Source of the DNA: an uncultured Calditrichaceae bacterium
Lineage (GTDB): Bacteria; Calditrichota; Calditrichia; RBG-13-44-9; J075
Length of the DNA: 64,000 nucleotides
Direction: 5' to 3'
Assembly: GCA_964522165.1 (NCBI GenBank)
Contig: CAZFVV010000001.1
Span: 23,394-87,393, forward strand
The notes under the pieces were generated by a model. The model ran no database searches and had not been told where the DNA came from. It saw only the letters and a list, made by a program, of their open reading frames with translations. A program made the translations under genes and the position numbers. Within the stretch, counting starts at the first letter, position 1; every line of letters starts with the position of its first letter. Below, piece by piece: positions 4,421 through 54,532 of this stretch.

Positions 4421-4514
4421 TTTACATTTTGGAGGTCAAACAAGAGAGGGGGAGAAAAAGCTTTTAGTCAGAAGCAGGGAAGATTCATTTAAAAGCGAAG
4501 TATCCAACACACAA

Positions 4515-4811: not shown

Positions 4812-5611
4812 ACATCTTTCGGGGTGAAGATTATTCGGGAAATTTTGCTCCATTGTACATTAACCCTGCCGGAAATGGAACATATCGAATTCAGGTTGCT
4901 CTGTATGTAGATTTTGAGCCCGATATCACTGAATATTCCGGTTCGTTTACCGTGACCGATGTAGTCGCCCCTTCTGCTCCAACTGGCATCACTAGATCTA
5001 TTGTGGGTTCGCAGAACAATCCCCGTATTGACTGGAATCAGAACCCTGAAGGAGATATTCAAAACTATGAAATCTATAAAAGAGTGGGCAGTGATCCCTG
5101 GGGAACTTCTCCAATCGCTACTGTAAGTAACACTACAAAATATTACGTGGATCAGACAGTGACAGGGGCCAGTTTTTACCAATATAGCAATAATGTGGAG
5201 ATTCCCTACCGGGTAAAAGCAGTTGATTTTAACGCCAATAAATCGGCTCATTCCAGTTCAGTTAGTTTTAATGTGCAGGGCGGGGATCAGAGCAAAATTG
5301 TGGGTCCGAATCTGGTTGAACAAGTCATTCCGGACAATTATGTCCTAATGCAAAACTACCCAAATCCTTTTAACCCGGTTACAACCATTCAATTCGGGCT
5401 GAAAGAAGCCGGGCCGGCAGAAGTAGCGATCTATTCCATAGACGGGCGGAAAATCGCAACCCTGGTGAATGAATTCATGGAAGCGGGGACGTATCAAGTG
5501 CATTGGGATGGGACGGATCAACAAGGCAACCCGGCCAGCTCTGGCGTGTACCTCTATCAACTAAAAGCAGGGAATCAAAGGCTGGTGAAGAAGATGATGC
5601 TCGTCAGATAA
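4793..5611 (+). CDS. T9SS C-terminal-domain protein (3' part, or a separate ORF with a GTG start)
   Basis: C-terminus YPNPFNPVTTIQFGL...VAIYSIDGRKIATL...SGVYLYQLKAGN is a canonical T9SS CTD. The reading frame is open upstream back to 4661. Confidence 0.75.
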   Translation: MVNKPINIFRGEDYSGNFAPLYINPAGNGTYRIQVALYVDFEPDITEYSGSFTVTDVVAPSAPTGITRSIVGSQNNPRIDWNQNPEGDIQNYEIYKRVGSDPWGTSPIATVSNTTKYYVDQTVTGASFYQYSNNVEIPYRVKAVDFNANKSAHSSSVSFNVQGGDQSKIVGPNLVEQVIPDNYVLMQNYPNPFNPVTTIQFGLKEAGPAEVAIYSIDGRKIATLVNEFMEAGTYQVHWDGTDQQGNPASSGVYLYQLKAGNQRLVKKMMLVR

Positions 5612-5706
5612 ACTGCCAGTGATGCAGGCCGCTCCTTTAGAGCCGCTTTTTACGGACCCCACATAATCGGCCAACTTAGGAAAAGCTTCCGGCAGTCGGT
5701 TCGATC

Positions 5707-5758
5707 AATAAACTCCGCTCATCCCGGTTTCCGCCAGGGGGAGCGGAGTTTATTTCTT
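5707..5758 (+). terminator. Rho-independent terminator-like hairpin after the T9SS gene
   Basis: AATAAACTCCGCTC...GAGCGGAGTTTATT forms a 14 bp stem, followed by TCTT. Confidence 0.55.
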
Positions 5759-6055
5759 ATAAGCATTTATAAGCAGCTTATATTCGGCGTTTTGCTCGAA
5801 ACGTCATCCCGAATAAGTCGGGATGGCGGAAAAGCTGCTTCTTTCCGTAGAAATATTTCTCGAAGGAATCTAAGATCGGAGCACTCCCCGAAGCCTTGCA
5901 TTTTTTTATTTTTTTGCAAAGGGTAGGGGTAAGCATTAAATTTCTCACTTGTTTAAAAAAAAATCGAATTTTGATTCATCTATCACGGTTTTTTTGCTTG
6001 AATTATGCGTAATTGTTAATATTCAGATGCGAACGCGGTAAAAAAAGGAGATTCG

Positions 6056-8833
6056 ATGGCTAAGAAGTACGTCTATTATTTCGGTTCCAACGGCGCAGAT
6101 GGCCGCGCAGACATGAAAGAATTGTTGGGAGGCAAGGGCGCCAACCTGGCGGAGATGGTTAACTTAGGTATGCCGGTGCCTTCCGGTTTTACCATTTCTA
6201 CCGAAGTGTGTACTTACTACTACAAAAACAACCGCACCTACCCCAAGGAGCTTTCCGGCCAGGTGCTGCAAGCGCTGCGGAAAATGGAAAAAGAGATGGG
6301 CGCCAAATTCGGCGACAAAAACAATCCCCTGCTGATATCGGTTCGTTCCGGGGCGCGCAGCTCCATGCCCGGGATGATGGAAACGGTTCTGAACGTGGGA
6401 TTGAACGATACCACCCGCGAGGGATTGATCAAAAAGTCCAAAAATCCCCGCTTCGTGTACGATTCCCAGCGCCGCCTGATCCAGATGTATTCCGACGTGG
6501 TGATGGAAAAGGCCGCCGGCGTCGAGCCGAAAGAGGGCAAAGGTATTCGCCAGCAGTTGGAACACGAGTTGGAAAAGATGAAACACGCCAAAGGCTGCAA
6601 AAGCGACACGGACCTGACCGCCGATGATTTGCAAGAATTGATCGAAATTTACAAGCGGAAAGTGCGGGAAGTGCTCGGCAAACCCTTCCCGGAAGACGCC
6701 CTGGAGCAGTTATGGGGCGGGATCGGGGCGGTTTTCCAAAGTTGGAACGGCAAACGCGCCGTGGCCTACCGGCGGATCGAGGGCATCCCGGATTGGTGGG
6801 GCACCGCGGTCAACGTGCAGGCCATGGTGTTCGGAAACATGGGCGACTCCTCAGCCACCGGGGTGGGATTTACCCGCAACCCGGCCACCGGCGAGAACTA
6901 TTTCTACGGCGAATGGCTGCCCAACGCCCAGGGCGAAGACGTTGTCGCCGGCATTCGCACCCCCAACCCGGTCAACGAGGTGGGAAAATCCGAGCATACC
7001 CACCACCTGCCCTCCCTGGAAACCGCCATGCCCAAAGCGTATAAACAACTTCACCGGATTCAGAAGCAGTTGGAAAAGCATTACAAGGATATGCTCGACA
7101 TCGAATTCACCATCCAGGACGGCACGCTGTACATGCTGCAGTGCCGGGTGGGGAAACGGAACGGCCCCGCGGCGCTGAAAATGGCGTTGGACATGATGCA
7201 CGAAAAACTGATCGACGCAAAAACCGCGGTTGCCCGGGTGAAGCCGGAGCAATTGGATGAATTACTGCACCCGATTTTAGACCCCAAGGCGGAAAAAGCG
7301 GCTACCTCCATCGCCAAAGGTTTGCCTGCCGGCCCCGGCGGCGGAACCGGCAGGGTGGTGTTCAGCGCTAATGAGGCCGTGGAATGGGCTAAAAAAGGCG
7401 AAAAGGTCATTTTGGTGCGCGAAGAGACCAACCCGGAAGACATCGAAGGGATGCGCGCGGCGCAAGCCATCCTCACCGCCCGCGGGGGGATGACCAGCCA
7501 CGCCGCGCTGGTGGCGCGCGGCTGGGGAAAATGCTGCATCGTCGGCGCGAGCAGCATCAAGGTAAATTTCAAAGAGAAATATTTGATGGCCGGGGAGCAT
7601 AAGGTTAAAGAAGGCGACTGGATTTCCCTGAACGGCAGCAAGGGCGTGGTCTATCTCGGCCAGCTGGGCATGGTGAAGACCACCGAGGACAACCCCCTGT
7701 TCCAGGAGTTGATGAAACTGTGCGATAAATTCCGTCGCCTGAAAGTTCGCACCAACGCCGATACCCCGGAAGACGCCCGGAAGGCGCGGGCCTTCGGGGC
7801 GGAAGGAATCGGGCTGTTCAGAACCGAGCACATGTTCTACGGCAAAGGCTCCGAAGCTCCCTTGTTCAAGCTTCGCAAAATGATCATCTCCAAGACCGAA
7901 GCCGAACGCCGGGCGGCGTTGGAGGAGTTGTTTTCCCACGTGAAGAGCGACATCAAAGGCACCCTGGAAGCGATGGACGGCTTCCCGGTGACCATCCGCA
8001 CCCTGGATCCGCCTTTGCATGAATTTGTGCCCAATCACCACGAAGAGCAGGAAAAGCTCGCCAAAAGCCTCAATATCAGCCTGGAAGAATTCGAGAAACG
8101 CGCCAATGCGCTGCATGAAAACAACCCCATGATGGGGCATCGCGGGGTGCGGCTGGGCGTGACCTACCCGGAAGTGACCGAGATGCAAATCCGGGCGATC
8201 TTCGAGGCCACTGCGGAATTGCTGCAAAAAGGAAAAAAACCTTATCCCGAAATCATGATTCCGGTTACCTGCACCAGCGCTGAATTGAAGCACCAGTTCG
8301 ATCTGATTGCCCAGGTACACCAGGAGGTATGCGCGAAGTTCAAGATGAAAGCGATTCCCCACCTGGTGGGAACCATGATCGAAATTCCCCGCGCGGCGCT
8401 GACCGCGGATAAAATGGCCGAATATGCGCAGTTCTTCTCGTTCGGAACGAATGATTTGACCCAAATGACCTTCGGCTTCTCGCGGGACGACATCGGCGGG
8501 TTTTTACCCGATTACCTGGAGAAGCGCATCCTGCCGGGGGACCCGTTCCAACAGGTTGATCGCGATGCGGTGGGCGAGCTGATGAAGGTCGCCTGCGAAA
8601 AAGGGCGCAGCGCCCGGCCGGATATTAAACTGGGCATCTGCGGGGAGCACGGCGGCGACCCGGCTTCCGTGGAGTTTTGCCACCAATTAGGATTGTCGTA
8701 TGTCAGTTGCTCCCCCTTCCGGGTGCCGATTGCCCGGCTGGCCGCGGCGCAGGCGGCGCTGCGCGACTCCGCGCCGGCGCCCAAAAAGCAGAAAAAGGGG
8801 GCAGCGAGAGCCAGCCGGAGTGCAAAACTTTAG
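6056..8833 (+). CDS. ppdK: Pyruvate, phosphate dikinase
   Basis: 925 aa. RBS AGGAGA upstream. N-terminal KYVYYFGSNGADG...GGKGANLAEM, a central phosphohistidine region and the PEP-utilising C-terminal domain. Ends in a Lys/Arg-rich tail. Confidence 0.93.
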   Translation: MAKKYVYYFGSNGADGRADMKELLGGKGANLAEMVNLGMPVPSGFTISTEVCTYYYKNNRTYPKELSGQVLQALRKMEKEMGAKFGDKNNPLLISVRSGARSSMPGMMETVLNVGLNDTTREGLIKKSKNPRFVYDSQRRLIQMYSDVVMEKAAGVEPKEGKGIRQQLEHELEKMKHAKGCKSDTDLTADDLQELIEIYKRKVREVLGKPFPEDALEQLWGGIGAVFQSWNGKRAVAYRRIEGIPDWWGTAVNVQAMVFGNMGDSSATGVGFTRNPATGENYFYGEWLPNAQGEDVVAGIRTPNPVNEVGKSEHTHHLPSLETAMPKAYKQLHRIQKQLEKHYKDMLDIEFTIQDGTLYMLQCRVGKRNGPAALKMALDMMHEKLIDAKTAVARVKPEQLDELLHPILDPKAEKAATSIAKGLPAGPGGGTGRVVFSANEAVEWAKKGEKVILVREETNPEDIEGMRAAQAILTARGGMTSHAALVARGWGKCCIVGASSIKVNFKEKYLMAGEHKVKEGDWISLNGSKGVVYLGQLGMVKTTEDNPLFQELMKLCDKFRRLKVRTNADTPEDARKARAFGAEGIGLFRTEHMFYGKGSEAPLFKLRKMIISKTEAERRAALEELFSHVKSDIKGTLEAMDGFPVTIRTLDPPLHEFVPNHHEEQEKLAKSLNISLEEFEKRANALHENNPMMGHRGVRLGVTYPEVTEMQIRAIFEATAELLQKGKKPYPEIMIPVTCTSAELKHQFDLIAQVHQEVCAKFKMKAIPHLVGTMIEIPRAALTADKMAEYAQFFSFGTNDLTQMTFGFSRDDIGGFLPDYLEKRILPGDPFQQVDRDAVGELMKVACEKGRSARPDIKLGICGEHGGDPASVEFCHQLGLSYVSCSPFRVPIARLAAAQAALRDSAPAPKKQKKGAARASRSAKL

Positions 8834-9494: not shown

Positions 9495-12121
9495 AGGCCA
9501 GGATCGATACGGAATTCTTGCCCTTTGTCAGCAAGCCTGCGCGATACCTGGGAAACGAGTATAACGCCGTTCTGAAATCCCCCCGGCCGGGGGAACTGCG
9601 CGTGGCCCTGTGTTTTTCCGATTTGTACGAAGCGGGAATTCGCAATACTGCATTTGAGACGTTATACCACTGTTTGAACAGCCAGCCGAAAATTTCCGCG
9701 GAACGGGTTTATACTCCCTGGACCGACGCGGAAACGGTTCTGCACGCTGCCGCTATCCCACTGTTTTCGCTGGAATCCAAATTCCCCCTGAACAAGTTTG
9801 ATCTGCTCGTTTTCTACCTCCCGGATGTATTATCATTTACCAACCTCTTAACCATGTTGCATCTCGGCGGCGTTCCGCTTCGCTCCCGGGAGCGGAACGC
9901 CGGGGAACCGCCGGTGATTGGCGTCGGCCCCGCGCTCATCAATCCCGAACCGCCGGCTGTTTTCCTGGATGCGGCCGTTCCCGGGGACCCCGTAGCCGCC
10001 CTGTGGGAAATTGCCGCGGCGGCGGAACGCGCAAAGAGCGAGCGCCGAGACAGGCAGGAGTTCCTCCGGGCTATCGCGGCAATCCCCGGGGTGTATGTTC
10101 CTTCATTTTATGAGCCGTTGTATAACGATTTTAAGGAATTCCAGGGAATTACCCGCTTAGAGACTACCGCGCCGGAGCGTATCCGCAGCGCTGCCGCCGG
10201 GTCCGGCGCTAAGGATGAAAAAATCTGCCCGCTGAAACCGCTGCAGCCCCCGGGAGATTTGCCCAACAATCGCCCCGCGGCCGGCCAGTACGAACGCTTT
10301 ACGGGGGAAAATAACCGTTTCGCTCCCGGGCGGGTATTTCCCCCGGCGGTGCAGCAATCCGCGGAAAATTTGTACCGGGAATTGCAAAAATGCTTGCAGG
10401 GAAGCGGCGCGGAGCCGGCGGCGCGGTTATTATCCAATGATTCGCTTTTCCGGGAAACCGGTTGGGGATTCGCCAAGGAGAAATGCCTTGCAGAAGAGCA
10501 CCTGATAAGCGTCTCCGTTCCTTCTGCGGAATTAGCGCTGCGCCTGCCGGCAACCGGGGAGCTGGCCAACGCGCTGAAGGAGAATGGGTTCGCCCTCTCG
10601 CCCCTGGCTGGCAGCCCGCGCCTGCGCAGCGTGTTGAACCTGAACCTGCGCGACCAGGATATTTTAGACGCGGTCAAATTGGCGCTGGAGAGCGGCTGGC
10701 AAACCATCCGGCTGAATTTTATGCTCGGCCTGCCCGCCGAAAAGCCGGAAGATGCCGAGGCCATCGCCGCCCTGGCCAAAAAATGCCTGGATCTCGCCAA
10801 ATCCTATCCGGAAGCGCAGCTGCTGGTCTCGGCGCAGGGGTTTTCGCCGAAAGCTCATACGCCTTTCCAGTGGGAAAAACAGGAATCCGCGGCGCTGCTG
10901 GAAGAGAAATTCGAGCAGCTCCGGCAAAGCTTAGCCGACCTCCCGGTAAAAACCGTTTTTCAAAATCCCCGCCTGGCCAGCTTAGAAACCGCCCTCTCCC
11001 GGGGCGACCGCAGGATGGGCGAGGTGATCGAGAGCGCCTGGCAGCGGGGAGCGCGCCTCGACGCCTACAAGGAAACTTTTCGCGGGGAGGCCTGGGAGCG
11101 GGCGTTCCGGGAAAAGGAGATCGACTGGGAGGCCTGCCTCTCGCCCATCTCCGTTACCGTGGCGCTGCCCTGGGACCACATCGACCTGGGCGTCTCCAAA
11201 GCGGATCTCAAAGAAGAAAAGTTGCGGGCTTACCAGGGGCAGTTGCACCCCCGGAACAAGGATATGGTTTCGTTAGGCTACGGGGGATTGCCGCGAACGG
11301 AGTTCGAGGCGCTGCTGTGGAGCAATCTACCGGCGGAGCGGGGAAATAGCGCGGGGACGGTTTCCCGGCCCCGGCTCGAGGCGATGGCTGATTCGCAGGG
11401 GGAGGCCATCCAGTACGGCCGCCGGGAACGCAAGCGCCAGGCCCCAGTGCAGGTGATCAAGCGAAAAATCCGCATCCGCTATTCCAAATCCGGCCCGGCG
11501 CGGTTCCTTTCGCACCTGGACATCGTGCGGGTGTTCGACTTTTCCGCGCGGCTGGCGAAAATTCCCTTAGTATATTCACAAGGACTGCGCCCGAATCCCA
11601 AAATTTCGTACGCGCTTCCCCTAAGCCCCGGGGTCGCTTCCACTGCGGAGTACCTGGATATGGAAGTGGAAATCGGGCGGGAGACCGATATCCAGGGGCG
11701 TTTCAACCGGTTTTTGCCCGGCGGCATCCAGATTCTGCAATACCAGGGCATTTTCGCCAAAGTGCCGGCCCTGGCCGCGGTGATCAACCGCTCCACTTAT
11801 GAAACGCTGCTAACGGATTTCAGCCTGCCGGAAGAATGGGTTGCGGAGTGGCTGGCCCAACCGGAAGCGCCGGTTCGCCGGGAGACCAAGGAGGGGATGA
11901 AGGAGGTCGATATTCGCCCCTACGTACGCCAAATGAAGCGCACGCAGAGCAATTTAAATGTAACGATTGACATCATCGAAGGAAGAACTGCTAAAATAAC
12001 CGAAGTATTGGAATCGCTGCTTTCCCCCCGAGGGATCGAGTATCGAAAATTCCAGGTTCAGCGAACGGGACAATATATCGTCGAGAACGATTCGATTTTA
12101 ACACCTTTTGATATTATTTAG
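9485..12121 (+). CDS. Fusion protein: TIGR03960-like radical-SAM-family protein (N-terminal B12-binding-like domain) joined to a DUF2344/TIGR03936 'radical SAM-linked' domain. The canonical CX3CX2C motif is not detectable.
   Basis: N-terminus FVSKPARYLGNEYN...LRVALCFSDLYEAG matches TIGR03960. The C-terminal RIRYSKSGPARFLSHLDIVRVFDFSARLAKIPLVYSQGLRPNPKISYALPLSPGV matches DUF2344. The start overlaps the argR stop by 10 nt. Confidence 0.75.
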   Translation: MELKARIDTEFLPFVSKPARYLGNEYNAVLKSPRPGELRVALCFSDLYEAGIRNTAFETLYHCLNSQPKISAERVYTPWTDAETVLHAAAIPLFSLESKFPLNKFDLLVFYLPDVLSFTNLLTMLHLGGVPLRSRERNAGEPPVIGVGPALINPEPPAVFLDAAVPGDPVAALWEIAAAAERAKSERRDRQEFLRAIAAIPGVYVPSFYEPLYNDFKEFQGITRLETTAPERIRSAAAGSGAKDEKICPLKPLQPPGDLPNNRPAAGQYERFTGENNRFAPGRVFPPAVQQSAENLYRELQKCLQGSGAEPAARLLSNDSLFRETGWGFAKEKCLAEEHLISVSVPSAELALRLPATGELANALKENGFALSPLAGSPRLRSVLNLNLRDQDILDAVKLALESGWQTIRLNFMLGLPAEKPEDAEAIAALAKKCLDLAKSYPEAQLLVSAQGFSPKAHTPFQWEKQESAALLEEKFEQLRQSLADLPVKTVFQNPRLASLETALSRGDRRMGEVIESAWQRGARLDAYKETFRGEAWERAFREKEIDWEACLSPISVTVALPWDHIDLGVSKADLKEEKLRAYQGQLHPRNKDMVSLGYGGLPRTEFEALLWSNLPAERGNSAGTVSRPRLEAMADSQGEAIQYGRRERKRQAPVQVIKRKIRIRYSKSGPARFLSHLDIVRVFDFSARLAKIPLVYSQGLRPNPKISYALPLSPGVASTAEYLDMEVEIGRETDIQGRFNRFLPGGIQILQYQGIFAKVPALAAVINRSTYETLLTDFSLPEEWVAEWLAQPEAPVRRETKEGMKEVDIRPYVRQMKRTQSNLNVTIDIIEGRTAKITEVLESLLSPRGIEYRKFQVQRTGQYIVENDSILTPFDII

Positions 12122-12196
12122 TGTTCGAGTGTTATAGTGTTCTGGTGTTATAGTGCTTTAGTTTCTTCGCACTAAAACACTAAAACACCTGAACAC
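12121..12196. repeat. Long imperfect palindrome made of 8-nt periodic units: GTGTTCGA GTGTTATA GTGTTCTG ... AACACTAAAACACCTGAACAC
   Basis: Tandem GTGTTNNN units are mirrored by NNNAACAC units. Related copies lie at 13797-14052, 19648-19745, 35513-35595 and 62625-62660. Confidence 0.6.
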
Positions 12197-12261
12197 TTTT
12201 CCCCCGTTCTGTACCGTGATACAGCGACATCCGACGCCGCGGTTACCGCAATGAGGATACC

Positions 12262-13794
12262 ATGGCTATACGAAAAGAAATTGTTATCAATTCGACCAAT
12301 GAAGATACACGAATTGCGCTCCTGGAGGACGGGAAGTTAGTGGAGTTGTTTGTAGAACGCCCGGATAACGAACGCATGGTGGGGGACATTTATAAAGGGC
12401 GGGTAAGGAAAGTAGTGAAAGGAATGCAGGCGGCTTTTATAGATATCGGTTTTCAGCAGGACGGATTTCTGCACTTCTCGGACATGGGGAGTAACGTTAA
12501 CCAGCTCTTTGCCGATATCGAGGAAGAGGAAACCGAGGGAGGCGGCAAATCCCGCCCCGACATGGAACCTTCGGAGCTGCTGCGCAACGGGCAGGAAGTT
12601 TCCGTTCAAATCATCAAAGAACCGATCAGCAGCAAGGGTCCCCGGGTCACCACGGAATTGACCCTGCCGGGGCGCTTTTTGGTGCTGGTACCTAACCAGC
12701 ACCGGGTGGGGGTTTCCCGCAAGATCAGCACCAGCCAGGAACGGCGGCGGTTGCGCCAACTGGTGCGCAAAATGCTGCCGAAGAATTTCGGGTTGATCGT
12801 GCGCACCGTGGCGGAGGGAAAATCCGATGACGTGCTCAAGCAGGATTTGAACAGGCTGCTGAAAGAGTGGCAGGTCATCGAAGAAAAAATGCGCACCGCC
12901 AAACCGCCCATGCTGCTGTTCAAGGACTTAGGAATGGCCTCCAGCGTTATCCGCGACCTGTTTACCAGCGACGTTAAACGGGTGGTGGTAGATTCCCGGA
13001 AAATGCACCGCGAGATTACCCGCTACCTCAAGGAAGCCGGTTCGGAACTGCTGGAGCGGGTGGAATATTTCAAATCCAGGCGCCCGATTTTCGACGTCTT
13101 CAACGTCGAAGAAGAAATTCAAAAGAGCTTGCAGAAAAAAGTGTGGATGAAAAACGGCGGGTACGTCATTATCGAGCATACCGAGGCGCTTACCGTGGTG
13201 GACGTAAACAGCGGGCGGTATTTCGGAAGGAAAGACCACGAGAAGAATTCCCTGAAGATCAACCTGGAGGCGGCGCGGGAGATAGCCCGGCAATTGCGCC
13301 TGCGTGACGTCGGGGGATTGATCGTCATCGATTTCATCGACATGGAAGAAGAGGGAAACAAGCGCCGGTTATTTATGGAACTATTGAAAGAATTCAGCCG
13401 CGACCGCGCCGCCAGCAACATCCAGGAATTGAGCAAATTCAGCATCGTGGAAATGACCCGGGAGCGCATCCGCCCCAGCCTGATCTACAATATTACCGAG
13501 CCTTGCGCGGTGTGCGAAGGCACCGGGCTGGTGCCGACCCGGGGAACCGTGCTGGCGCACATCGAGCGCGCCCTTCGCCGCTACGTGGCTACCCGTTTGG
13601 ACCGGCGGGTGATTCTGCAAGTTCACCCGAGCATGGCGGAGTTCCTGAACAACAAGCCCTTCGGGCGGCGCTTCCGCTTGATGTGGAAATACTGGGTAAA
13701 GATCATTTTAGAACAAGATACAACCCTGGCGCCGCACCAGTTCCGGCTGCTGGTGAAGCGCAACCGCGAAGACGTGACCGGGAAATTCTCATAA
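12262..13794 (+). CDS. rng: Ribonuclease G (RNase E/G family)
   Basis: 510 aa. The S1 domain with GDIYKGRV...AAFIDIG, a DNase-I-like catalytic core and a C-terminal Zn-link CAVCEGTG are present. Confidence 0.88.
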   Translation: MAIRKEIVINSTNEDTRIALLEDGKLVELFVERPDNERMVGDIYKGRVRKVVKGMQAAFIDIGFQQDGFLHFSDMGSNVNQLFADIEEEETEGGGKSRPDMEPSELLRNGQEVSVQIIKEPISSKGPRVTTELTLPGRFLVLVPNQHRVGVSRKISTSQERRRLRQLVRKMLPKNFGLIVRTVAEGKSDDVLKQDLNRLLKEWQVIEEKMRTAKPPMLLFKDLGMASSVIRDLFTSDVKRVVVDSRKMHREITRYLKEAGSELLERVEYFKSRRPIFDVFNVEEEIQKSLQKKVWMKNGGYVIIEHTEALTVVDVNSGRYFGRKDHEKNSLKINLEAAREIARQLRLRDVGGLIVIDFIDMEEEGNKRRLFMELLKEFSRDRAASNIQELSKFSIVEMTRERIRPSLIYNITEPCAVCEGTGLVPTRGTVLAHIERALRRYVATRLDRRVILQVHPSMAEFLNNKPFGRRFRLMWKYWVKIILEQDTTLAPHQFRLLVKRNREDVTGKFS

Positions 13795-44200: not shown

Positions 44201-44528
44201 TGCGCGGTACCCCGTTTACATGGGTAAATATTCCTCCGATATACCAACCGCCCATCCCGTCTGGAACCACCGCATTCACAGTTCCTAGCACCTTCGGCAG
44301 AGAAATATCTGGCGCGCCGGTAACAACGTCGATGGCCGCCCCGCCGCCCGTGGCGGGACCCACTTCGGTAAAGTCTCCCCCAATGTAGATGGTGCTTCCC
44401 GAAACCACCAATGCTCTCACCGGAGCATTGGTGATCCACAAATTGGGGTCAATGGTCTGCGCCGCTCCCGGCAGGCTGCCCAGGAGCAATGCGCCCAGCG
44501 TGAACCAGAGCCGGATTATGCGTTTCAT
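41265..44528 (-). CDS. Large secreted protein (1087 aa): about 17 tandem delta-60-type repeats, two dockerin-like modules and a T9SS C-terminal sorting domain
   Basis: Repeated SGSTVYAGGxFTSIGGQxRNYIAALDAATGSATxWNPNAN blocks. Dockerin-like modules GDVTGDGATNSIDALVLLSYDAG and GDVNDDGLTNSTDAL. C-terminal YPNPFNPATTIRFGLP...ILGQGVALL...SGVYFYRL. Confidence 0.8.
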   Translation of the reverse strand: MKRIIRLWFTLGALLLGSLPGAAQTIDPNLWITNAPVRALVVSGSTIYIGGDFTEVGPATGGGAAIDVVTGAPDISLPKVLGTVNAVVPDGMGGWYIGGIFTHVNGVPRNNIAHIQADHTLSPWDPDANGPVATLAVSGSTIYAGGAFISIGGQARNYIAALDAATGSATTWNPDANDGVWTLVVSGSTVYAGGGFTSIGGQPRNYITALDAVSGSATPWNPNANNPVNALAVSGSTIYAGGFFTSIGGQARNYITALDAATGSATPWNPNANNPVSALAVSSSTAYAGGYFTNIGGQPRNRIAALDAATGSATPWNPNANSVVWALALSGSTVYAGGEFTSIDGQARNRIAALDAATGSATAWNPNANIGVLALAVSGSTVYAGGGFTSIGGQERNRIAALDAVSGSVTAWNPDADELVTALAVSGSTVYAGGDFFNIGGQQRSRIAALDSATGSATAWNPNSIFGPVLALAVSGSTVYTGGNFHHIGGQPRDYIAALDAATGSATAWNPDANGEVVTLAVSGSTVYAGGGFTSIGGQARNYIAALDATTGSATAWNPNANNWVSALAVSGSTVYAGGSFGSIGGQERNYIAALNAATGSATAWDPNAYPGVDALAVSGSTVYAGGAFIRIGNLPHAGIAGISALQSAGVMVVSPQMLNVALSQGQTGDETITIFNSGGGELIWSISVVPMVEWLEVASTAGTVPAGGSMDVTVTFNADTLPGDYSTDIMVSGNDPNNPSDVVTAHMLVCGADQLSGVLGDVTGDGATNSIDALVLLSYDAGLPLPQPFLDRIAIGFGDVNDDGLTNSTDALVTLTWEVGLPVPFPIGTVVCLPAPVAPGKSTVAPPAKGNEVQAYAAPNLTGQVLEVPVMIDMTKTGEKLGSYTVALSWDPSLLQLTGYSSGTTEGFAAPMINDLKVKEGRLAAAHAYPHGAVGVVNILNLKFKILGNAPSLPDKPVSLSFSAMAAAGTFTDLLPYLKLSDQGSVPAMENVPQSFTVENYPNPFNPATTIRFGLPKTAQVKLEIFNILGQGVALLVDERKAAGYHSVQWDGSGAASGVYFYRLTAAPSSGPGQGFVETRKMLLMR

Positions 44529-44941
44529 GGCTTTCCTCCGTTTTGTTTGTTTCTTCTGACAATGGTTGTTGCTGCAAACTTACGGAAAGCAAAGGGAGGG
44601 TTCAAGGGGAATTTGTGGCATAATAATACCGCCGGGGGGGATTCCAATTAAACTGATCGATAACGAAGTTGCATCCAGGCGCAGCTATACTTAGATTTGC
44701 ACCGGCATCTCAATTTCAGCAAATGGAGGATTCGATGTATATCGCCATCAGAGGGCTTTTTAGATAAAATGACTTGAAATTTGCCAGGAAACTCCGGACC
44801 CAATGGGAAAGAGACCATGAAAGATAAAGTCAGGAGCATTGTTTGGTAAATATTATTACGGTTGTAGAATTGTACTGTGGATAGGTTTTCCCTCCTTGAT
44901 TTCCCTGGATATTTGAAATATTTTACCAACGGGCGAAAATT

Positions 44942-45331
44942 ATGAAACTTCAAGAACATATCGATTATTGGCTGAAATCAGCCGCCCATGACCTGGAGAG
45001 TGCTGAGACGCTGTTTGAGCACGGACGCTACGATTGGTGTCTGTTCCTGGGGCACCTGGTAATTGAAAAAATGCTGAAAGCCTTTTTTGTGCGAGACACT
45101 CAGAATCAAACCCCACCCTTTACCCACAATCTTTCCATGATAGCCGCCCACACCAGCCTGAACCTCACATTACAACAAGAAAATTTACTGCTTGAGCTAA
45201 ACCAGTTTAACCTGCGAACCCGTTATCCAGACTATAAGTTAGAATTCTACCAAAAGTGTACCCGGCAGTTTGCCGAACCATATTTTGCCAAAATCAAGGA
45301 GCTATACCAATGGCTGTTGCAACAGATATAG
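44942..45331 (+). CDS. HEPN domain protein (PF05168 type)
   Basis: WLKSAAHDLESAETLFEHGRYDWCLFLGHLVIEKMLKAF...THNLSMI...RTRYPDY matches the HEPN layout of HEPN/MNT pairs. Confidence 0.78.
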   Translation: MKLQEHIDYWLKSAAHDLESAETLFEHGRYDWCLFLGHLVIEKMLKAFFVRDTQNQTPPFTHNLSMIAAHTSLNLTLQQENLLLELNQFNLRTRYPDYKLEFYQKCTRQFAEPYFAKIKELYQWLLQQI

Positions 45332-45621
45332 ACAACAAGGTTCACTTGTTTCTCGATCTCATCTCCAAAAAAATCGAGATTGTTCAGGCATATCTTTTTG
45401 GTTCATCCGTAAAAGGCAAATCGCACGAATGGAGCGACATCGACTTGGCCATCGTGTCGCCAGATTTTTCCGGCGATAGTTTTGAAGACAGCAAAATGCT
45501 GTTCCCTTTTATCCTGCAAATAGATCGCTCCATCGAAGTGCATCCTTTCCGCCCGGGCGATTTTTCCCTTGACAATCCTTTCATCAAAGAAATTGTTGAA
45601 ACCGGCCTGAGAATTGTTTAG
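45310..45621 (+). CDS. Nucleotidyltransferase (MNT) domain protein, partner of the HEPN gene
   Basis: AYLFGSSVKGKSHEWSDIDLAIV (GS...DxD) is a minimal nucleotidyltransferase. The start overlaps the HEPN gene's end by 22 nt. Confidence 0.78.
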   Translation: MAVATDIDNKVHLFLDLISKKIEIVQAYLFGSSVKGKSHEWSDIDLAIVSPDFSGDSFEDSKMLFPFILQIDRSIEVHPFRPGDFSLDNPFIKEIVETGLRIV

Positions 45622-45739
45622 CGCAGAAAAAACCTTCCCTGGCATGCCGAGGTCATCCGGGATTCGGAAGGTTTACTTGAACATTTGCGCACCTTAACAC
45701 CCTGCCTGCCTGAAATCCGGCAGTCAGGCAGGCAAAATC

Positions 45740-47713
45740 CTACAGTCTTTCCTTCACCCAATTCTCCAACCCCCCGGCCAGCACCAGCTCCTGCGCGGCA
45801 ATTCCCACCGGATCGATGGGGTAGCTTTTACCGCCCGCCTCTACCACGGATTTGCGGAAATTCACCTTCGCGGGGATGCCGCTGCGCACGGTCAGTTTTT
45901 CTTTTCCGAAGCGCTGTTTGAGATCGTTCACCAGATCCGGCGCTTCCACGGCCAGGTAGCCGTTGTTCAGGGCGTTGCGCTTGTAGGTTTCGTTGAAAGA
46001 ACCGGCCAGCACCAATTGCAATCCGCGGTATTTCAGGGCCGTGGCGGCCTGCTCCCGGGAGCTGCCGGTACCGAAGTTGAAACCGCCTACTAAAATATCC
46101 CCTTCCCTGGCGATTTTGCCGAATTCGGGATCGTAGTTCTCCATCACCACCTGCGCCTGCTGCTGCGGGGTGAAATCGTCGATGTAAGTGTATTTGCCGG
46201 GGAAGATGCCGTCGGTGTTGAGATTATCCTGGTGGCAGAAGATCAACTCTCCTTCCAGCGTTTCCGGGAACCCCTTCAGGATGCGCACTTCCCCGCCCGC
46301 CGCGGTTTTTTTGAGATTCACCCGGATTTCTCCCCGGGGCATTTCCGAAGCCCATTCCCCGGGAAAGTCGATCTTTCCGGCGATGGCGGAGGCGGCCACC
46401 ACCGCGGGAGATGCCAAATAGGCCTGCGCGTTGGGAGAGCCCATGCGCCCCTTGAAATTGCGGTTAGTGGCGGAGATGCCCACCTCGCCATCCTGCAGCA
46501 GCCCCCGCCCTAACCCGATGCAAGGCCCGCAGCCGGGCGGCAGGGGAATTGCCCTCGCCGCTAACAGTTTTTGCCAGTCGCCCCGTCTTTCGCTCTCCGC
46601 CTGCACCTCGCTGGAGGCCGCGGCGATGTAGAATTCCACTCCCTCCGCCACCTTTTTTCCGGCCACCACCCGCGCCGCTTCCGCGAGGTCTTCCACCCGG
46701 CTGTTGACGCAGGAAACCAGGTAGGCTTTGTGGATTTTGAGATTCTTCCGGCGCAGCTCTCCCACCCCGGCCATCACCTTGACCCCGTTGGGGCCGGAGA
46801 CGAACGGCTGCACCGCGGAGAGATCCAATGCCAATTCCTTCGCGTAATAGGCATCTTTGTCCGCCCGCAGCTCCGGCAGCCGTTTTTCCAGCTCCACGAT
46901 GCGTTTCTCGTTCAGGCGGGGGTGAATTCCGTTTCCGTCGGCGTCCGAGGGCGCGCCCGCCAGCCCGCGCCGGGCGATGAACGCGGCGCGCTCCCGCAGC
47001 CAGGCCAGGGTGATTTCATCCACCGGGAAAACCCCGGCCAGCGCGCCCCATTCCGTGCTCATGTTGGCGATGGTCAGGCGCTCGTCGATGCTCAGGCTCT
47101 TCACGCCCTCGCCCACGAATTCCACCGCGTGGTTGAGCACTTCATCTTTGTTGAACACCCCGCACAGGGCGATGATCACGTCTTTTCCGGTTACGCCGGC
47201 GCGCAGTTTTCCCTGCAATTCCACCTTTGCCGCCGGGGGAACCTGCCACCAGGTGCGCCCGGTGGCCCAGAGGGCCGCGGCGTCGGTGCGCACGATGGGC
47301 GTGCCTAAGCAGCCCAGCCCGCCGTACATGTTGGAGTGGCTGTCCGAGGCCACCACCAGGGTTCCTGGCCAGGCGTAGCCTTCCTCGCACATGATCTGGT
47401 GCCCGATGCCCCTTCCGGCGGGATAGAAATCCACGCCCATCTGTTTGGCAAACGCTTCGATCTTTCCATATTTTTGCAGGTTCTGCTCGCTGGTATCCTG
47501 CACATTATGATCGAGGGTAAAAACCGGCTGGCGGGGATTGGCGATTTTGCTTGCCCCGATGCTGCGGAATTTGGGGATCACCGCGCCGGTGTTGTCGTGA
47601 GTCATCACGTAAGCGGGCTGGATGGACAGGTAGTCGCCGCTGCGCACGGTGTGGCCTTCTTCCAATCCCACCGCGAAGGCCCGGGCGATTTTCTCGACAA
47701 AGTTTTGCGACAT
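45740..47713 (-). CDS. Aconitase-family hydro-lyase with fused large and small subunits (3-isopropylmalate dehydratase / homoaconitase-like)
   Basis: 657 aa. Aconitase catalytic-domain motifs (VASDSHSNMYGGLGCLGT, cluster Cys in CVNSR and GCGPCIGLG) plus a C-terminal swivel domain. Confidence 0.82.
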   Translation of the reverse strand: MSQNFVEKIARAFAVGLEEGHTVRSGDYLSIQPAYVMTHDNTGAVIPKFRSIGASKIANPRQPVFTLDHNVQDTSEQNLQKYGKIEAFAKQMGVDFYPAGRGIGHQIMCEEGYAWPGTLVVASDSHSNMYGGLGCLGTPIVRTDAAALWATGRTWWQVPPAAKVELQGKLRAGVTGKDVIIALCGVFNKDEVLNHAVEFVGEGVKSLSIDERLTIANMSTEWGALAGVFPVDEITLAWLRERAAFIARRGLAGAPSDADGNGIHPRLNEKRIVELEKRLPELRADKDAYYAKELALDLSAVQPFVSGPNGVKVMAGVGELRRKNLKIHKAYLVSCVNSRVEDLAEAARVVAGKKVAEGVEFYIAAASSEVQAESERRGDWQKLLAARAIPLPPGCGPCIGLGRGLLQDGEVGISATNRNFKGRMGSPNAQAYLASPAVVAASAIAGKIDFPGEWASEMPRGEIRVNLKKTAAGGEVRILKGFPETLEGELIFCHQDNLNTDGIFPGKYTYIDDFTPQQQAQVVMENYDPEFGKIAREGDILVGGFNFGTGSSREQAATALKYRGLQLVLAGSFNETYKRNALNNGYLAVEAPDLVNDLKQRFGKEKLTVRSGIPAKVNFRKSVVEAGGKSYPIDPVGIAAQELVLAGGLENWVKERL

Positions 47714-50665: not shown

Positions 50666-51256
50666 TTATTTTTTGAGAGGAAACGCCTTCTGCACCGTGT
50701 AAATCGCGCCCCGGGGGGTGAGGTCGCTTTTCATCACCAATACGTTGCCGGCGGCGAATTCGACCTCCGGGAAGGGGTATTCCATAAAGGTTTTGGAAAC
50801 CGTTTCGATGTTTTTCATCCCCTTCACCCTCCCGACCGTTAAATGGGGTTTGAAGCCGCGTTCCTCCTTGGGGAAGCCGGCGAGGTGCAACTCTTCCTCG
50901 ATTTTTCGTTGCAGGGCCGTTAAATGATCGCCGCCCGGTTCCGCCAGTCCCACCCAGAATACCCGCGGGCGCTGCAAAGAGGGGAACGCGCCTTTGCTTG
51001 CGGCTTTCAGGGAAAAGGGGGGGATTCCGTTTGCCGCCCGCTCCACGGCGGCAAATACTTCCCGCGCCTGTGCCGGGGTAATCTCTCCCAAAAATTTCAA
51101 GGTAAGGTGAATGGATTTAGGGTCCACCCAGCGCACCTCCCCGGGAAGTTTGCGCATTGCGCGCGCCAGCGCTTCGAAGGCGGTTTCTAATTCGGGAGAA
51201 ATTTTGATGGCGACGAAGGTTCTGATGGCGGGCATGGTTGAAGGGCCTTTGGTCAA
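50666..51256 (-). CDS. thpR: RNA 2',3'-cyclic phosphodiesterase (2H family, ThpR/LigT-like)
   Basis: Two H-x-T-x motifs (HLTLKFLG and HLTVGRV). Confidence 0.8.
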   Translation of the reverse strand: MTKGPSTMPAIRTFVAIKISPELETAFEALARAMRKLPGEVRWVDPKSIHLTLKFLGEITPAQAREVFAAVERAANGIPPFSLKAASKGAFPSLQRPRVFWVGLAEPGGDHLTALQRKIEEELHLAGFPKEERGFKPHLTVGRVKGMKNIETVSKTFMEYPFPEVEFAAGNVLVMKSDLTPRGAIYTVQKAFPLKK

Positions 51257-51266
51257 AATTCATTAA

Positions 51267-52457
51267 TTATGTCTCAATTGTATCAAAATCTATTTCGAGC
51301 TTTTTACATAAATCACTCAATATTTTAAGCCCTCTCTCTCGACCATAATGACTTTCCATGGTATATCCTTCATACTTCACAGGATAAAAAAATTCTCTGC
51401 CATTTGGATGAACGGGCGGAATTTCATTTGTTACGATATATCTGTGCTTGCTGCTTCCCCAGGGAAGTGGAAGTTTCAAGATATATTTTTTTTCAACGAT
51501 ATACTTCAGAATATCTCCGAAAAGTAGGCGTAAAGTTTCATTAGAAAAAACTTTGTTATCAAGCTTAACAGCTATTCTTCCAGTGGTTCGCCCCTTAGTA
51601 TCTGCAACATCCGAAGTACTATAATCGATGGTTCCTGTTGCTACTAAGACATCATAAATCGAATCAAACACATCATTGTATTTCTCGTAAAGAGCAATAG
51701 CCATTTTCTTTTCTTCATTCGTAATTGCCATTTTGATTCCCTTATATCTAATCTTCAGGTTTTTAATATATTGAATAATGAAAGGTTTAACTTTATCATT
51801 TAGATTGGGGTGGTCGAGCAATGGCATTAATAGTTTATCATTCAACAATTGATAATCCAAACAGTACCATCTCATATCCCCAACCGTAGATTTAGAATCC
51901 AATGAAAGATTTGGCGTTAAATATATTAACAAGTTTACATCATTGGGGTGACTTTTATAGAGCCAATCTGCATACTTTTTTGACTGTTTCCCATCAGGTT
52001 TTGAATCAATTTTTAATTCAAATACAATGTTTAGCTTACCTTTATTGCCCAAACTGTCTTCAAAATTTGCTGTGAGAAAGATGTCAAATCTACCTACGCC
52101 AATAATACTGGTCTCATTTGGAGTATTCTCATTCGGTGTAACTTCCACGTCATAAAACTCAACAGTTGGAAGTATCGTTAATAAAAACTGCTTTGAATGA
52201 TCACTCGCTTTAAGACATCGTTCGTCAAAGAGCAACAACAAAAACCTTTTTAGAGAATAATCTGAAAGTAAATGTGAACCACTGGGATCCAATAACCACC
52301 CGAAAAAACATGAATGCCATCTTTCATAATGAGTTCTGCCGACTATTTTAAAAAAATTCGGTTCGCTAAGGATGTTTTCAAACTTTATGAACGCTGGTTC
52401 TGAGATTAAACTCAATAGTCTTTGTGTAAAGCTGGCTTTCGTTTTTTCCCTTGGCAC
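51267..52457 (-). CDS. PD-(D/E)xK nuclease-superfamily protein (396 aa), stand-alone, in an AT-rich islet
   Basis: N-terminal E..HS..FGWLLDP..SH block, then GRFDIF...VFELKIDSK (D...E-x-K). GC is far below the flanks. Confidence 0.65.
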   Translation of the reverse strand: MPREKTKASFTQRLLSLISEPAFIKFENILSEPNFFKIVGRTHYERWHSCFFGWLLDPSGSHLLSDYSLKRFLLLLFDERCLKASDHSKQFLLTILPTVEFYDVEVTPNENTPNETSIIGVGRFDIFLTANFEDSLGNKGKLNIVFELKIDSKPDGKQSKKYADWLYKSHPNDVNLLIYLTPNLSLDSKSTVGDMRWYCLDYQLLNDKLLMPLLDHPNLNDKVKPFIIQYIKNLKIRYKGIKMAITNEEKKMAIALYEKYNDVFDSIYDVLVATGTIDYSTSDVADTKGRTTGRIAVKLDNKVFSNETLRLLFGDILKYIVEKKYILKLPLPWGSSKHRYIVTNEIPPVHPNGREFFYPVKYEGYTMESHYGRERGLKILSDLCKKLEIDFDTIET

Positions 52458-52692
52458 TCTTCACCTTCAGTGATCAGGATTCTACTTGAAAAAACTATGG
52501 ACTCCAATGTATCAACTTTTCAATTTCCCTACAATTGAGGAAAAATTTAATCCAATTTCTCTTTGATGACAATTCAAAGATTCATAATGATTTATTTTGT
52601 AGCGTGTCGTTAATCAGGTTGATTTTCACAGCGAAGACTGATATATTTCTTACGTTTTACGTAATACGTGGCAAAAACATCCAGAGAAGGCT

Positions 52693-54171
52693 ATGCCCTC
52701 ACAAAATCCCTACCAGGCGCTTTTATCCATCAGCGAGCAAATCAACGCCGTGCACGACACCTCCACGCTGTTCGACCGCATCATGGACCTCGCCATGGAG
52801 GCGCTAAAGGCGGAGCGGGGGTTTATCCTTCTGAAATCTCCCGCCGGCAAGAAAGAGTTTGAGGCGGTCACCGCCCGGAATATCAGCAAGGAGACCATCT
52901 CCTCCATCCGGGAGCTGTCCAGCAGCGTGGTGAACCAGGTGCTGGAGAAAGGGGAGCCGGTGCTGACCATGGATGCCCGGGCGGATGAGCGCTTTTCCGG
53001 GGCGGAGAGCGTGCTGCTGCAAAATATCCGCTCCGTGGTATGCACCCCGCTGCTGCGCCAGGATGAGCTGATCGGGGCGATTTATATGGATAACCGCGCC
53101 GGCGCCGGGCATTTCGATGAAGAGAGCCTGCGCTTTCTGCAAGCCTTTGCCGGACAGGCCGCCATCGCCATCGAGAACGCCCGGCTATTCGAGAAATTGC
53201 AATCGGAAAACCAGCGTTTGAAGCAGCAGATTTCGCTCAACACTATCTTCCCGGAGATCATCGGGACAAGCGCCCCCATCGTACACATCCTGGAAATGGT
53301 GCGCGACGTGGCCGGTTCCACGGCCACGGTGCTGATCGAAGGGGAAAGCGGCACCGGCAAGGAGTTGGTCGCCAGGGCGCTGCACTATCACTCTCCCCGA
53401 AAGGAGAATCTCTTCATCCCGATTTTCTGCGGCAGCCTCTCGGAAAATTTGTTAGAGAGCGAGCTTTTCGGCCACAAAAAAGGCGCTTTTACCGGGGCCA
53501 TCGAAAACAAGGCCGGCCTCTTCGAGCAGGCGCACCAGGGCACCCTGTTTCTCGATGAAATCGCGGACATCAACAAGAACATCCAAACCAAGCTGCTGCG
53601 GGTGCTGCAGGAAGGGGAGATCAAGCGGGTGGGCGAGACCGCCATCCGCAACGTGGACGTACGGATTATCTCCGCGGCCAATAAGGATCTCTGGCAGGAA
53701 GTGCAGGCGGGAAATTTCCGGGAAGACCTCTATTACCGCCTGAACGTCATCAATATCAAAATGCCCCCGCTGCGGGAACGGAAGGATGACATTCCCCTGC
53801 TGGCGGAGCATTTTTTGCAAAAATTCGCCTTGCAGAACAAGAAAAAAATCAGCGGGTTCACCATGGAGGCGCTGGAATTGCTCAAAAGTTATCACTGGCC
53901 GGGGAACATCCGGGAGCTGGAAAATTCCATCGAGCGGGCGGTGATCCTGGCCCGGGAGCCGAAAATTCCCGCCGGCCTGTTCAATTTGCACCGCCCCCGC
54001 CCGGAATCCGACCTGGCCGGCAAACCGCTGCAGGAAATCGAGAAATACGCCATCCTGAAAACCTTAGAGCTGACCGGGAATAATCGCACCAAAACCGCCC
54101 AGATGCTGGACGTTTCCCGTCGCTGGCTGCAATACCGCCTGAAAGAGTGGGGGATTGGGGAGGATCTATAG
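52693..54171 (+). CDS. Sigma-54-dependent transcriptional activator with an N-terminal GAF sensor domain
   Basis: GAF region, then AAA+ with GESGTGKELVARALH and the GAFTGA loop, then a C-terminal Fis-type HTH. Confidence 0.88.
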   Translation: MPSQNPYQALLSISEQINAVHDTSTLFDRIMDLAMEALKAERGFILLKSPAGKKEFEAVTARNISKETISSIRELSSSVVNQVLEKGEPVLTMDARADERFSGAESVLLQNIRSVVCTPLLRQDELIGAIYMDNRAGAGHFDEESLRFLQAFAGQAAIAIENARLFEKLQSENQRLKQQISLNTIFPEIIGTSAPIVHILEMVRDVAGSTATVLIEGESGTGKELVARALHYHSPRKENLFIPIFCGSLSENLLESELFGHKKGAFTGAIENKAGLFEQAHQGTLFLDEIADINKNIQTKLLRVLQEGEIKRVGETAIRNVDVRIISAANKDLWQEVQAGNFREDLYYRLNVINIKMPPLRERKDDIPLLAEHFLQKFALQNKKKISGFTMEALELLKSYHWPGNIRELENSIERAVILAREPKIPAGLFNLHRPRPESDLAGKPLQEIEKYAILKTLELTGNNRTKTAQMLDVSRRWLQYRLKEWGIGEDL

Positions 54172-54181
54172 GCAGAAGCAG

Positions 54182-54532
54182 GAGTGCAAAACTTCAGTTT
54201 TGCAGGGGCAGGAGCAGTGGGCAGGGACAAGAGCAGGAGGCAGGGGCAGGGGCGGCAGGAGCAGGAGGCAGGGGCAGGAGCAGGAGGCAGGGGCAGGGGC
54301 AGGAGTAGGGGCAGGGGCAGGAGTAGGGGCAGGAGTAGGGGCAGGGGCAGGAGTAGGGGCAGGGGCAGGAGTAGGGGCAGGAGCAGGGGCAGGAGCAGGG
54401 GCAGCCGCGTTAGCGGTGGTTTACCCCTTTTCCAAAGGAAGCACTTTGTGCCGGGGCTTCGCCATAGGCAATATTTGTGCTCCTTCCCTGCCACCTGCCT
54501 CCGCTCCTGCCCCTGCCTACTGCTCCCTTTTC
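54182..54532. repeat. Palindrome GAGTGCAAAACTTCAGTTTTGCA, then about 200 bp of GGGGCAGGAG(C/T)A tandem repeats (54205-54410), then a complementary C-rich copy (54478-54530)
   Basis: Tandem 12-mers are readable. Many GGGG runs lie on the + strand between the activator and kinase genes. Confidence 0.7.

Follow-up and report, generated by a model that had tools for sequence, protein, structure and literature searches.

Several described systems come close to the locus analysed here. Restriction enzymes of the modular kind keep cleavage and recognition in separate modules, and include the type IIS enzymes FokI and BspD6I and the modification-dependent enzymes DpnI and PvuRts1I. Modular free-standing homing enzymes (e.g. 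I-TevI) are composed of a catalytic domain, a linker and a DNA-binding domain, and homing genes, such as I-TevI and the seg/mob genes of T-even phages, are single small nuclease genes that carry little flanking DNA and sit within or between conserved genes. A nuclease gene can also be lodged in a restriction-modification (R-M) operon, as is the case for PrrC in the EcoprrI type I R-M operon. The C-terminal domain of SeqA binds hemimethylated GATC. Lastly, PDC-S26 is a single-gene ‘phage defence candidate’, one of 145 candidates in a set derived from genes that lie within BREX, DISARM and type I R-M operons (Payne et al. bioRxiv 10.1101/2024.01.29.577857).

Here, we describe a nuclease gene, referred to as NUC, from 64,000 nucleotides of Calditrichaceae DNA (this whole stretch is called the window), and compare it and its relatives with these systems. 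NUC occupies positions 51267-52457 on the minus strand and appears in the ORF list as a protein of 396 aa with a GTG start and a TAA stop. An earlier note on this DNA had pictured it as an AT-rich single-gene islet with thpR on one side and a sigma-54 activator on the other, and both statements were confirmed: a 2',5' RNA ligase/ThpR-type gene (thpR) lies at 50666-51256 and a GAF/sigma-54 activator gene at 52693-54171, and the GC of the NUC ORF is 0.345, compared with 0.55-0.63 alongside and a window mean of 0.543. Measured in 300-bp windows, GC is 0.32-0.37 across ~51250-52700 and returns to 0.55-0.63 on either side, and among 1191-bp stretches of the 64 kb the lowest GC falls at NUC (minimum 0.335, z = -3.3). 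The same picture emerges from GC3, which is 0.31 for NUC, 0.69 for thpR and 0.78 for the sigma-54 activator. The low-GC stretch slightly exceeds the ORF and takes in a 235-bp AT-rich upstream spacer. Other low-GC stretches of the window encode secreted proteins with type IX secretion sorting signals, a PMT_2 fragment and a HEPN/nucleotidyltransferase pair; the latter, ~6 kb off, is the sole other defence-like item near NUC, and no recognisable defence island surrounds the gene. Neither an N6_N4 methylase homologue nor the 66-aa partner described below was found anywhere in the 64-kb window.

The edges of the islet were placed at ~51258 and ~52640, where homology to two sister contigs, L028 and L114, stops and resumes. 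The right boundary (51257-51266, no strand) comprises the ~10-12 bp from the NUC stop codon to host-conserved sequence before thpR: homology between the window and L028 resumes ~12 bp past the NUC stop and ~22 nt before the thpR ATG (blastn and inspection), the distance from stop codon to ATG being 31 nt. On the left, an AT-rich non-coding leader (52458-52640, no strand, GC 0.27-0.40) extends to the boundary; it is conserved between the window and the contig with the nearest distinct copy of NUC (L003) and absent from L114. Promoter-like hexamers are present in the leader at 52572-52544 and 52523-52494, with a frequency not above chance, and a scan of the islet for promoters and terminators returned sites no commoner than in shuffled sequence. 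There is no terminator-like site on the minus strand between NUC and thpR.

The motifs on which the gene had been assigned to the PD-(D/E)xK superfamily are all present, YERWHS at aa 44-49, GWLLDP at 53-58, GRFDIF at 122-127 and FELKID at 146-151, and the assignment holds under profile alignment. NUC scores 50.9 bits on the Pfam model PDDEXK_4 (PF14281), above its cut-off of 22.3 (E=2.4e-13), with aa 34-230 aligned to profile positions 2-181 of 183, which places the catalytic domain at 51768-52358 on the minus strand. In an alignment of 30 homologues that share 66-84% identity with the window protein, E45, D125, E147 and K149 (with E147-x-K149 as the motif) are invariant, as are ~90 further positions spread across the full length of the protein. 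The codons of the catalytic triad lie within 52011-52085 on the minus strand (D125 at 52083-52085, E147 at 52017-52019 and K149 at 52011-52013), and the codon for the helix glutamate E45 is found at 52323-52325 on the same strand. The AlphaFold model (mean pLDDT 74.8, cores above 85) contains the alpha-beta-beta-beta-alpha-beta restriction-endonuclease-like core fold. With profile, motif and fold in agreement, NUC is a member of Pfam PDDEXK_4. NCBIfam and PHROGs searches with NUC gave no match, and a PDB sequence search using the family profile returned chance hits only.

Behind the motifs, the earlier note had counted about 250 further residues of unknown function. These residues can now be assigned to three parts: the remainder of the nuclease core, a helical linker and an alpha/beta domain of ~100 aa. 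The linker (aa ~245-275, 51633-51725 on the minus strand) is modelled as two helices (247-259 and 261-273, together aa 247-273) with low-confidence loops on either side, and the compact alpha/beta domain, a putative DNA-binding or recognition module, comprises aa 293-396 (51270-51581, minus strand). This last part is unclassified; its weak likeness to the SeqA DNA-binding fold is a lead only (identity 7-10%, Foldseek E >1, TM 0.32-0.41), and NUC has no match to the Pfam SeqA model. A profile search of 1.84 billion representatives returned 1868 relatives at E<=1e-3, and also showed the NUC-type C-terminal domain in fusion with an HSDR_N nuclease domain and with a divergent PDDEXK_4 domain, as expected of a portable DNA-recognition module. 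The C-terminal domain most likely provides DNA binding and target choice. NUC might, like a type IV (modification-dependent) restriction enzyme, read a methyl mark, which would fit both the weak SeqA likeness and the broken methylases that adjoin its relatives. The predicted layout resembles that of the modular restriction enzymes, with a cleavage module of the FokI/BspD6I type and a domain order of the DpnI or PvuRts1I type. In contrast to these enzymes, to none of which NUC belongs at the sequence level, the C-terminal domain contains no winged helix, SRA domain or FokI-type recognition domain.

The only PADLOC models that match NUC are those of PDC-S26, eight of which were hit, the best with E=3.8e-27 over aa 11-270 on profile positions 8-236 of 397. 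The longest matches end at NUC aa 270-272, corresponding to model positions 236-250 of ~400, and the C-terminal third is unmatched. NUC and PDC-S26 thus share the PDDEXK_4 module in their N-terminal region and both kinds of gene are embedded in defence operons, but the PDC-S26 candidates come from BREX, DISARM and type I R-M operons, whereas the NUC family is found in broken type II operons, and the C-terminal third of the PDC-S26 models has no counterpart in NUC. The suggestion that NUC is an abortive-infection or defence candidate stands as far as a candidate model is matched over the N-terminal two thirds, but nothing found is specific to abortive infection. A relationship to Shedu (SduA, DUF4263), for which a check had been proposed, was not borne out, as NUC has no DUF4263 or SduA match among the Pfam and PADLOC profiles.

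An identical NUC protein is encoded on two short metagenome contigs, where thpR is again the neighbour. The nearest other copy, 94% identical, comes from Calditrichaceae MAG_33 (L003) and shares the flanks on the upstream side (sigma-54 activator and kinase). Between the window and L003, NUC has a dS of 0.33 and a dN/dS of 0.07-0.10, and the flanking genes have a dS of 0.28-0.41. As its dS equals that of the flanking genes, NUC was already present in the common ancestor of the two. It has been inherited vertically since then, constrained as tightly as the sigma-54 activator, and its AT-richness has been retained.

The slightly more distant sister contig L028 encodes a thpR protein that is 84% identical to that of the window (dS 0.43). 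Directly upstream of this thpR lie the 3' end of an N6_N4 methylase gene (with the motif DPFMGSGTT) and, with no gap between them, a 250-aa restriction gene of the EcoO109I family; the methylase-restriction pair is apparently uninterrupted, and NUC is absent from the part assembled beside thpR. A contig from the same sample (L114; SRR32174802) has the sigma-54 activator, ends 117 bp upstream of it and aligns to the window over only the last ~60-95 bp before the activator start codon. The ends of L114 and L028 face each other, and the gap between them is unassembled. No truly empty insertion site was found among the relatives; the more distant thpR orthologues of L029 and L032 and the sigma-54 activator orthologue of L115 differ in synteny. 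Horizontal acquisition, for which the earlier note had argued, is supported by a patchy distribution over ~12 phyla, a GC below that of the flanks in nearly every host and the R-M pair that L028 has beside thpR; the acquisition was not recent, since the dS of NUC equals that of its flanks.

Beyond this lineage, homologues of NUC that are 53-94% identical and nearly constant in length occur in ~12 phyla, as judged by the labels of metagenome-assembled genomes. The hosts include Acidobacteriota, Gammaproteobacteria, Bacillota, Zhuqueibacterota, ‘Deltaproteobacteria’ and Verrucomicrobiota, as well as Chloroflexota, Bacteroidota, Ignavibacteria, Lentisphaerae and Planctomycetota. Some homologues are located on contigs of 1-2 Mb, and most of ~100 loci contain full-length ORFs. 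GC is below that of the flanks in nearly all of 23 genome loci, the low-GC stretch usually measuring 1.4-1.8 kb, and the flanking genes vary from host to host (e.g. the L002 copy lies between gatA and gatB). Between phyla, synonymous sites of NUC are saturated and the transfers are therefore not very recent. No member of the family was found in PLSDB plasmids or IMG/VR, and GenBank phages yielded a single distant partial match with 27.6% identity.

Signs of mobility were not recognised at the borders of the gene. A check for att-like direct repeats, which had been proposed for the islet, gave none above chance: in 20 loci, the 400-500 bp around NUC contained no consistent exact repeat, direct or inverted, the longest ones were nearly all in the shuffled range, and the two lowest results (4 and 6 of 200 shuffles, at L008 and L018) are no more than chance would produce in 20 loci. 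When the upstream regions of 87 loci were aligned at the start codon, a shared end motif was not found; one subgroup carries its own GGTATAAT-type promoter. Positions 40-64 kb of the window contain no tRNA, and no recombinase is adjacent to NUC. An integrase/att or IS-type element was rejected on these grounds, namely the lack of above-chance repeats, of a tRNA target and of an adjacent recombinase.

A pattern was instead found in the genes that adjoin NUC. In 24 of the 56 loci for which both flanks are available, NUC lies between remnants of a type II R-M operon that encodes an N6_N4 methylase and an EcoO109I-like enzyme. The upstream methylase relics are always 5' parts, with at least 12 different end residues (by locus, residue ~215, 186, 180, 163, 157, 122, 105, 78, 71, 42 and 22), and usually end 12-50 bp from the NUC start; a methylase 3' fragment was never found upstream of NUC. 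The downstream EcoO109I-like relics are mostly 3' parts, with at least 15 different start residues (among them 76, 85, 128, 132, 144, 146, 150, 167, 185, 189, 195, 205, 207 and 210). A full-length restriction gene is kept downstream of NUC in three loci, and exceptions of another kind are L066, which retains only restriction residues 97-185, and L009, with an internally deleted ORF of 125 aa. In a second class of loci, NUC is followed by 5'-truncated methylases that have motif I and lack the DPPY N-terminus. Every N6_N4 methylase adjoining NUC is truncated, with either motif I or DPPY missing. Stop codons are mostly missing from the relics, and dN/dS is ~0.07 over residues 1-155 of the methylase fragment, which fits recent inactivation. 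A role for the upstream fragment as a functional shortened protein is unlikely, since its length spans ~22-215 residues.

The identity of NUC and that of the flanking relics are uncorrelated (rho -0.08 for 79 restriction relic pairs and 0.15 for 54 methylase relic pairs), in a comparison of short segments and non-independent pairs over a narrow range of NUC identity. For example, L026 and L038 share 78% identity in NUC and 47% in the restriction enzyme, and for L026 and L073 the values are 62% and 74%, respectively. This incongruence argues against one ancient embedding followed by co-divergence and favours repeated association with members of one R-M family. A single ancestral embedding that then eroded is also unlikely given relics that are anchored at the cassette ends, mostly stop-free and, for the methylase, at a dN/dS of ~0.07. 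The arrangement recalls PrrC, another nuclease gene lodged in an R-M operon. In contrast to NUC, however, PrrC is an anticodon RNase with an ABC ATPase domain and its operon is intact and regulates it, whereas all methylases adjoining NUC are truncated and so are most of the restriction genes, apart from the three of full length.

We consider that NUC may be a self-contained, methylase-independent and restriction-like nuclease that functions in defence or in conflict between elements, a proposal to which we give about an even chance. Its placement among restriction-like or conflict nucleases is based on the partial PDC-S26 match, the restriction-type fold neighbours and the link to one R-M family, including the pair in L028. 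In the proposed model, the N-terminal PD-(D/E)xK core, with E45, D125, E147 and K149, would cut DNA, and the helical linker would tether it to the ~100-aa C-terminal alpha/beta domain, which is thought to provide recognition. The gene would have arrived horizontally in the Calditrichaceae lineage, in the intergenic slot between the sigma-54 activator and thpR, and afterwards been passed on vertically under strong purifying selection. NUC would act against incoming DNA with no need for a cognate methylase. In support of methylase independence, the window has no N6_N4 methylase, NUC stands alone in 13 of the 56 two-flank loci and the adjoining methylases of other loci are all truncated. For the same reason as regards the window, that is, the lack of any methylase homologue in its 64 kb, NUC was rejected as the R subunit of an intact type II system, although a protecting methylase might be encoded elsewhere in the genome, beyond these 64 kb. 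The position of relatives in broken operons of one R-M family may reflect specific antagonism with, or replacement of, that family. The model infers that NUC is an active nuclease, that its C-terminal domain binds DNA, that it serves in defence or conflict and that it can do without a methylase.

The same relics could also have been produced by NUC itself, as a selfish homing-like cassette that cuts intact N6_N4 methylase/EcoO109I-like operons and is copied, with or without its small partner, into the break during repair. In the process, the methylase gene would lose its 3' part and the restriction gene its 5' part, and the window would hold an old insertion whose relics have eroded. This would account for relics that are anchored at the ends of the cassette, with 5' methylase parts upstream and mostly 3' restriction parts downstream, for the second class in which DPPY-less, 5'-truncated methylases follow NUC, for relic frames that are mostly without stop codons and, in the methylase fragment, still at a dN/dS of ~0.07, and for the incongruent identities (rho -0.08 and 0.15), the last of these with the reservation that the pairs are non-independent and the range of NUC identity is narrow. 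It would also suit the uninterrupted methylase-restriction pair beside thpR in L028, as well as a domain layout that matches that of modular free-standing homing enzymes such as I-TevI. NUC further resembles homing genes in that it is one small gene for a nuclease, has little DNA around it and lies within or between conserved genes, and in that what may be uninvaded alleles occur among its relatives and a catalytic domain is joined through a linker to a putative DNA-binding domain. However, NUC belongs to another catalytic family, is chromosomal and not phage-borne, and its junctions are variable and imprecise, with deletions in the target. Many copies are found at unrelated, relic-free sites, e.g. 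between gatA and gatB in L002, and a locus that combines a maximal methylase relic with a full restriction gene was not found. In addition, a pure homing gene should decay once it is fixed, whereas the window copy has been kept under strong host-level purifying selection through vertical descent (dN/dS 0.07-0.10 at a dS of 0.33), without sign of a degeneration cycle. On balance, we view homing, and with it the eroded-insertion account of the window, as unlikely.

A variant of this explanation, which we likewise regard as doubtful, takes the host-level selection into account. NUC, with or without its partner, might be a self-propagating cassette that invades and wrecks one family of type II R-M systems, a "predator of restriction-modification systems". 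The host would then keep NUC because it destroys incoming copies of an addictive R-M element. The window would represent an old, relic-free insertion, and L028 would still have the uninterrupted pair at the matching thpR side. To our knowledge, an element of this kind, preying on R-M systems, has not been described so far.

In many relatives, NUC is accompanied by a conserved 66-aa acidic ORF, here named C1 (pI about 4.9), which directly follows NUC in 30 of the 71 loci whose downstream sequence was long enough and precedes it in 6 of 68. C1 is missing beside the window NUC, and 13 of the 56 two-flank loci, including that of the window, contain NUC alone without a partner. The description of the gene as stand-alone is hence accurate for the window locus but does not extend to the family, which often comes with C1 and is linked to broken operons of type II R-M systems. 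Since C1 is common in relatives and missing here, the window NUC may work differently or be partly disabled. Also considered for the window was a type II toxin-antitoxin pair, which was rejected with C1 absent and the NUC stop codon 31 nt from the thpR ATG.

For the family, the presence of C1 raises the possibility of a toxin or abortive-infection effector that is restrained by C1 and freed on infection, in which case the window copy would be a silenced or attenuated orphan toxin. The tight linkage of C1 in the loci counted above, its acidic nature and the purifying selection on it (dN/dS 0.04-0.17) are compatible with such a role, and expression might be poor for a gene that is AT-rich in a GC-rich host. 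Yet an essential antitoxin could not be lost in the way that is seen in the 13 loci where NUC is intact and constrained without a partner, C1 has no match in Pfam or PADLOC, and the catalytic residues of the window NUC are intact, and we judge this explanation improbable. Last, a housekeeping nuclease for DNA repair or recombination with a merely unusual composition would agree with the strong purifying selection and vertical inheritance in the Calditrichaceae and with a chromosomal location (none in the plasmid and viral collections, bar the distant 27.6% phage match), but is very hard to reconcile with the patchiness across phyla and differing flanks in each host, the L028 methylase that runs straight into the restriction gene with no NUC in the part assembled beside thpR, a GC persistently under that of the host, the lack of an NCBIfam match and the association with R-M relics.

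Taken alone, the window copy of NUC is an ordinary case of an uncharacterised PD-(D/E)xK nuclease that is encoded in a small islet of foreign DNA. The pattern seen across the family is unexpected and directly testable: a conserved gene is spread over ~12 phyla, without recognisable mobility sequences, and is found in amputated R-M operons. New in this family are the C-terminal domain, the small partner C1 and the habit of occupying such operons, and the place of the relatives in them suggests a role in conflict among mobile DNA defence genes. Should NUC prove to target that R-M family, or DNA that its methylase has marked, one defence or selfish element would be seen, in a concrete case, to displace another. 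If true, this would provide a first function for the PDDEXK_4/PDC-S26 group and for a new DNA-binding-like domain.

In about 35 related loci (e.g. L005, 9197-9664 and 11201-11404; L016, 7654-8496; L084, 4089-4808; and L073, L082 and L089), the nuclease cassette, that is, the PD-(D/E)xK nuclease gene with or without a small partner ORF, adjoins truncated restriction-modification genes. It is flanked on one side by an N6_N4 DNA methylase gene reduced to its 5' part and on the other, mostly, by an EcoO109I-like restriction gene reduced to its 3' part. The methylase and restriction relics are truncated at many different points, anchored on the nuclease cassette, and the identities among the nucleases are not congruent with those among the flanking relics. 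In a second class of loci, the cassette is followed by a methylase lacking the DPPY N-terminus. At the thpR slot itself, the sister Calditrichaceae contig L028 (sample SRR32174802) carries an apparently uninterrupted methylase-restriction operon (L028 1-958) immediately upstream of thpR, the place occupied by the nuclease gene in the window, and its EcoO109I-like enzyme gene directly follows the 3' end of the methylase gene. The companion contig L114, which carries the sigma-54 activator, stops 117 bp before the activator gene (L114 1-117), and hence the junction between L114 and L028 is unassembled.

In related loci, the nuclease gene is tightly linked to a conserved acidic ORF of 66 aa (pI about 4.9), which is located directly 3', or sometimes 5', of the nuclease gene (L001, L004, L006-L008, L010-L013, L015, L017, L019, L021-L023 and many of L034-L113). 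This partner ORF, with the consensus ..IIYSINIEDVQ.VA...L.R.LT..EL..VE.K.GD.I.W.EAI.., is under purifying selection, has no match in Pfam or PADLOC and, judged by eye from its residue pattern, looks like a beta-alpha-alpha, ribbon-helix-helix-like protein. It is absent from the gap between the nuclease gene and thpR in the window (51236-51266). In L013 (11187-12506), an insertion of approximately 1.15 kb interrupts the partner ORF, and the nuclease gene of L023 (9063-10903), which adjoins a 297-aa ORF, has become a fragmented pseudogene, indicating that the cassette decays in some hosts. By eye, the L013 insertion carries an ORF resembling an IS3-type OrfA, and the 297-aa ORF of L023 looks transposase-like.

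A second small low-GC islet, at 44942-45621 (+) in the window, belongs to a stretch of low GC that extends over about 44400-45800. The islet encodes a 129-aa HEPN-domain protein and an overlapping 121-aa nucleotidyltransferase, which together look like a HEPN/MNT toxin-antitoxin-type pair, and lies between a 1087-aa gene and a 657-aa gene (45740-47713), the L028 counterpart of which (89% nucleotide identity) matches Pfam Aconitase families. The 4.5-kb stretch at 1562-6240 (GC <0.45), likewise off the window mean in composition, contains genes for two proteins that each bear a sorting domain for type IX secretion (Por_Secre_tail). A strongly GC-skewed tandem array of the hexanucleotide GCAGGG, about 34 copies long (54202-54404), occupies part of the spacer that separates the sigma-54 activator from the Ser/Thr kinase; as this spacer is 382 bp in the window but only about 150 bp in L114, the array appears to be expanded in the window genome. 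In L115, a more distant Calditrichia relative, a ThyX (Thy1) gene (10904-13190) is interrupted by an intein with a weak HNH domain match.

In the window, only 31 nt separate the nuclease stop codon from the ATG of thpR (51236-51269; thpR 50666-51256), both genes are on the same strand and the gap contains no terminator-like site. Transcription may therefore read through from the foreign nuclease gene into thpR and then into the next genes, which encode an aminopeptidase and a POT transporter.
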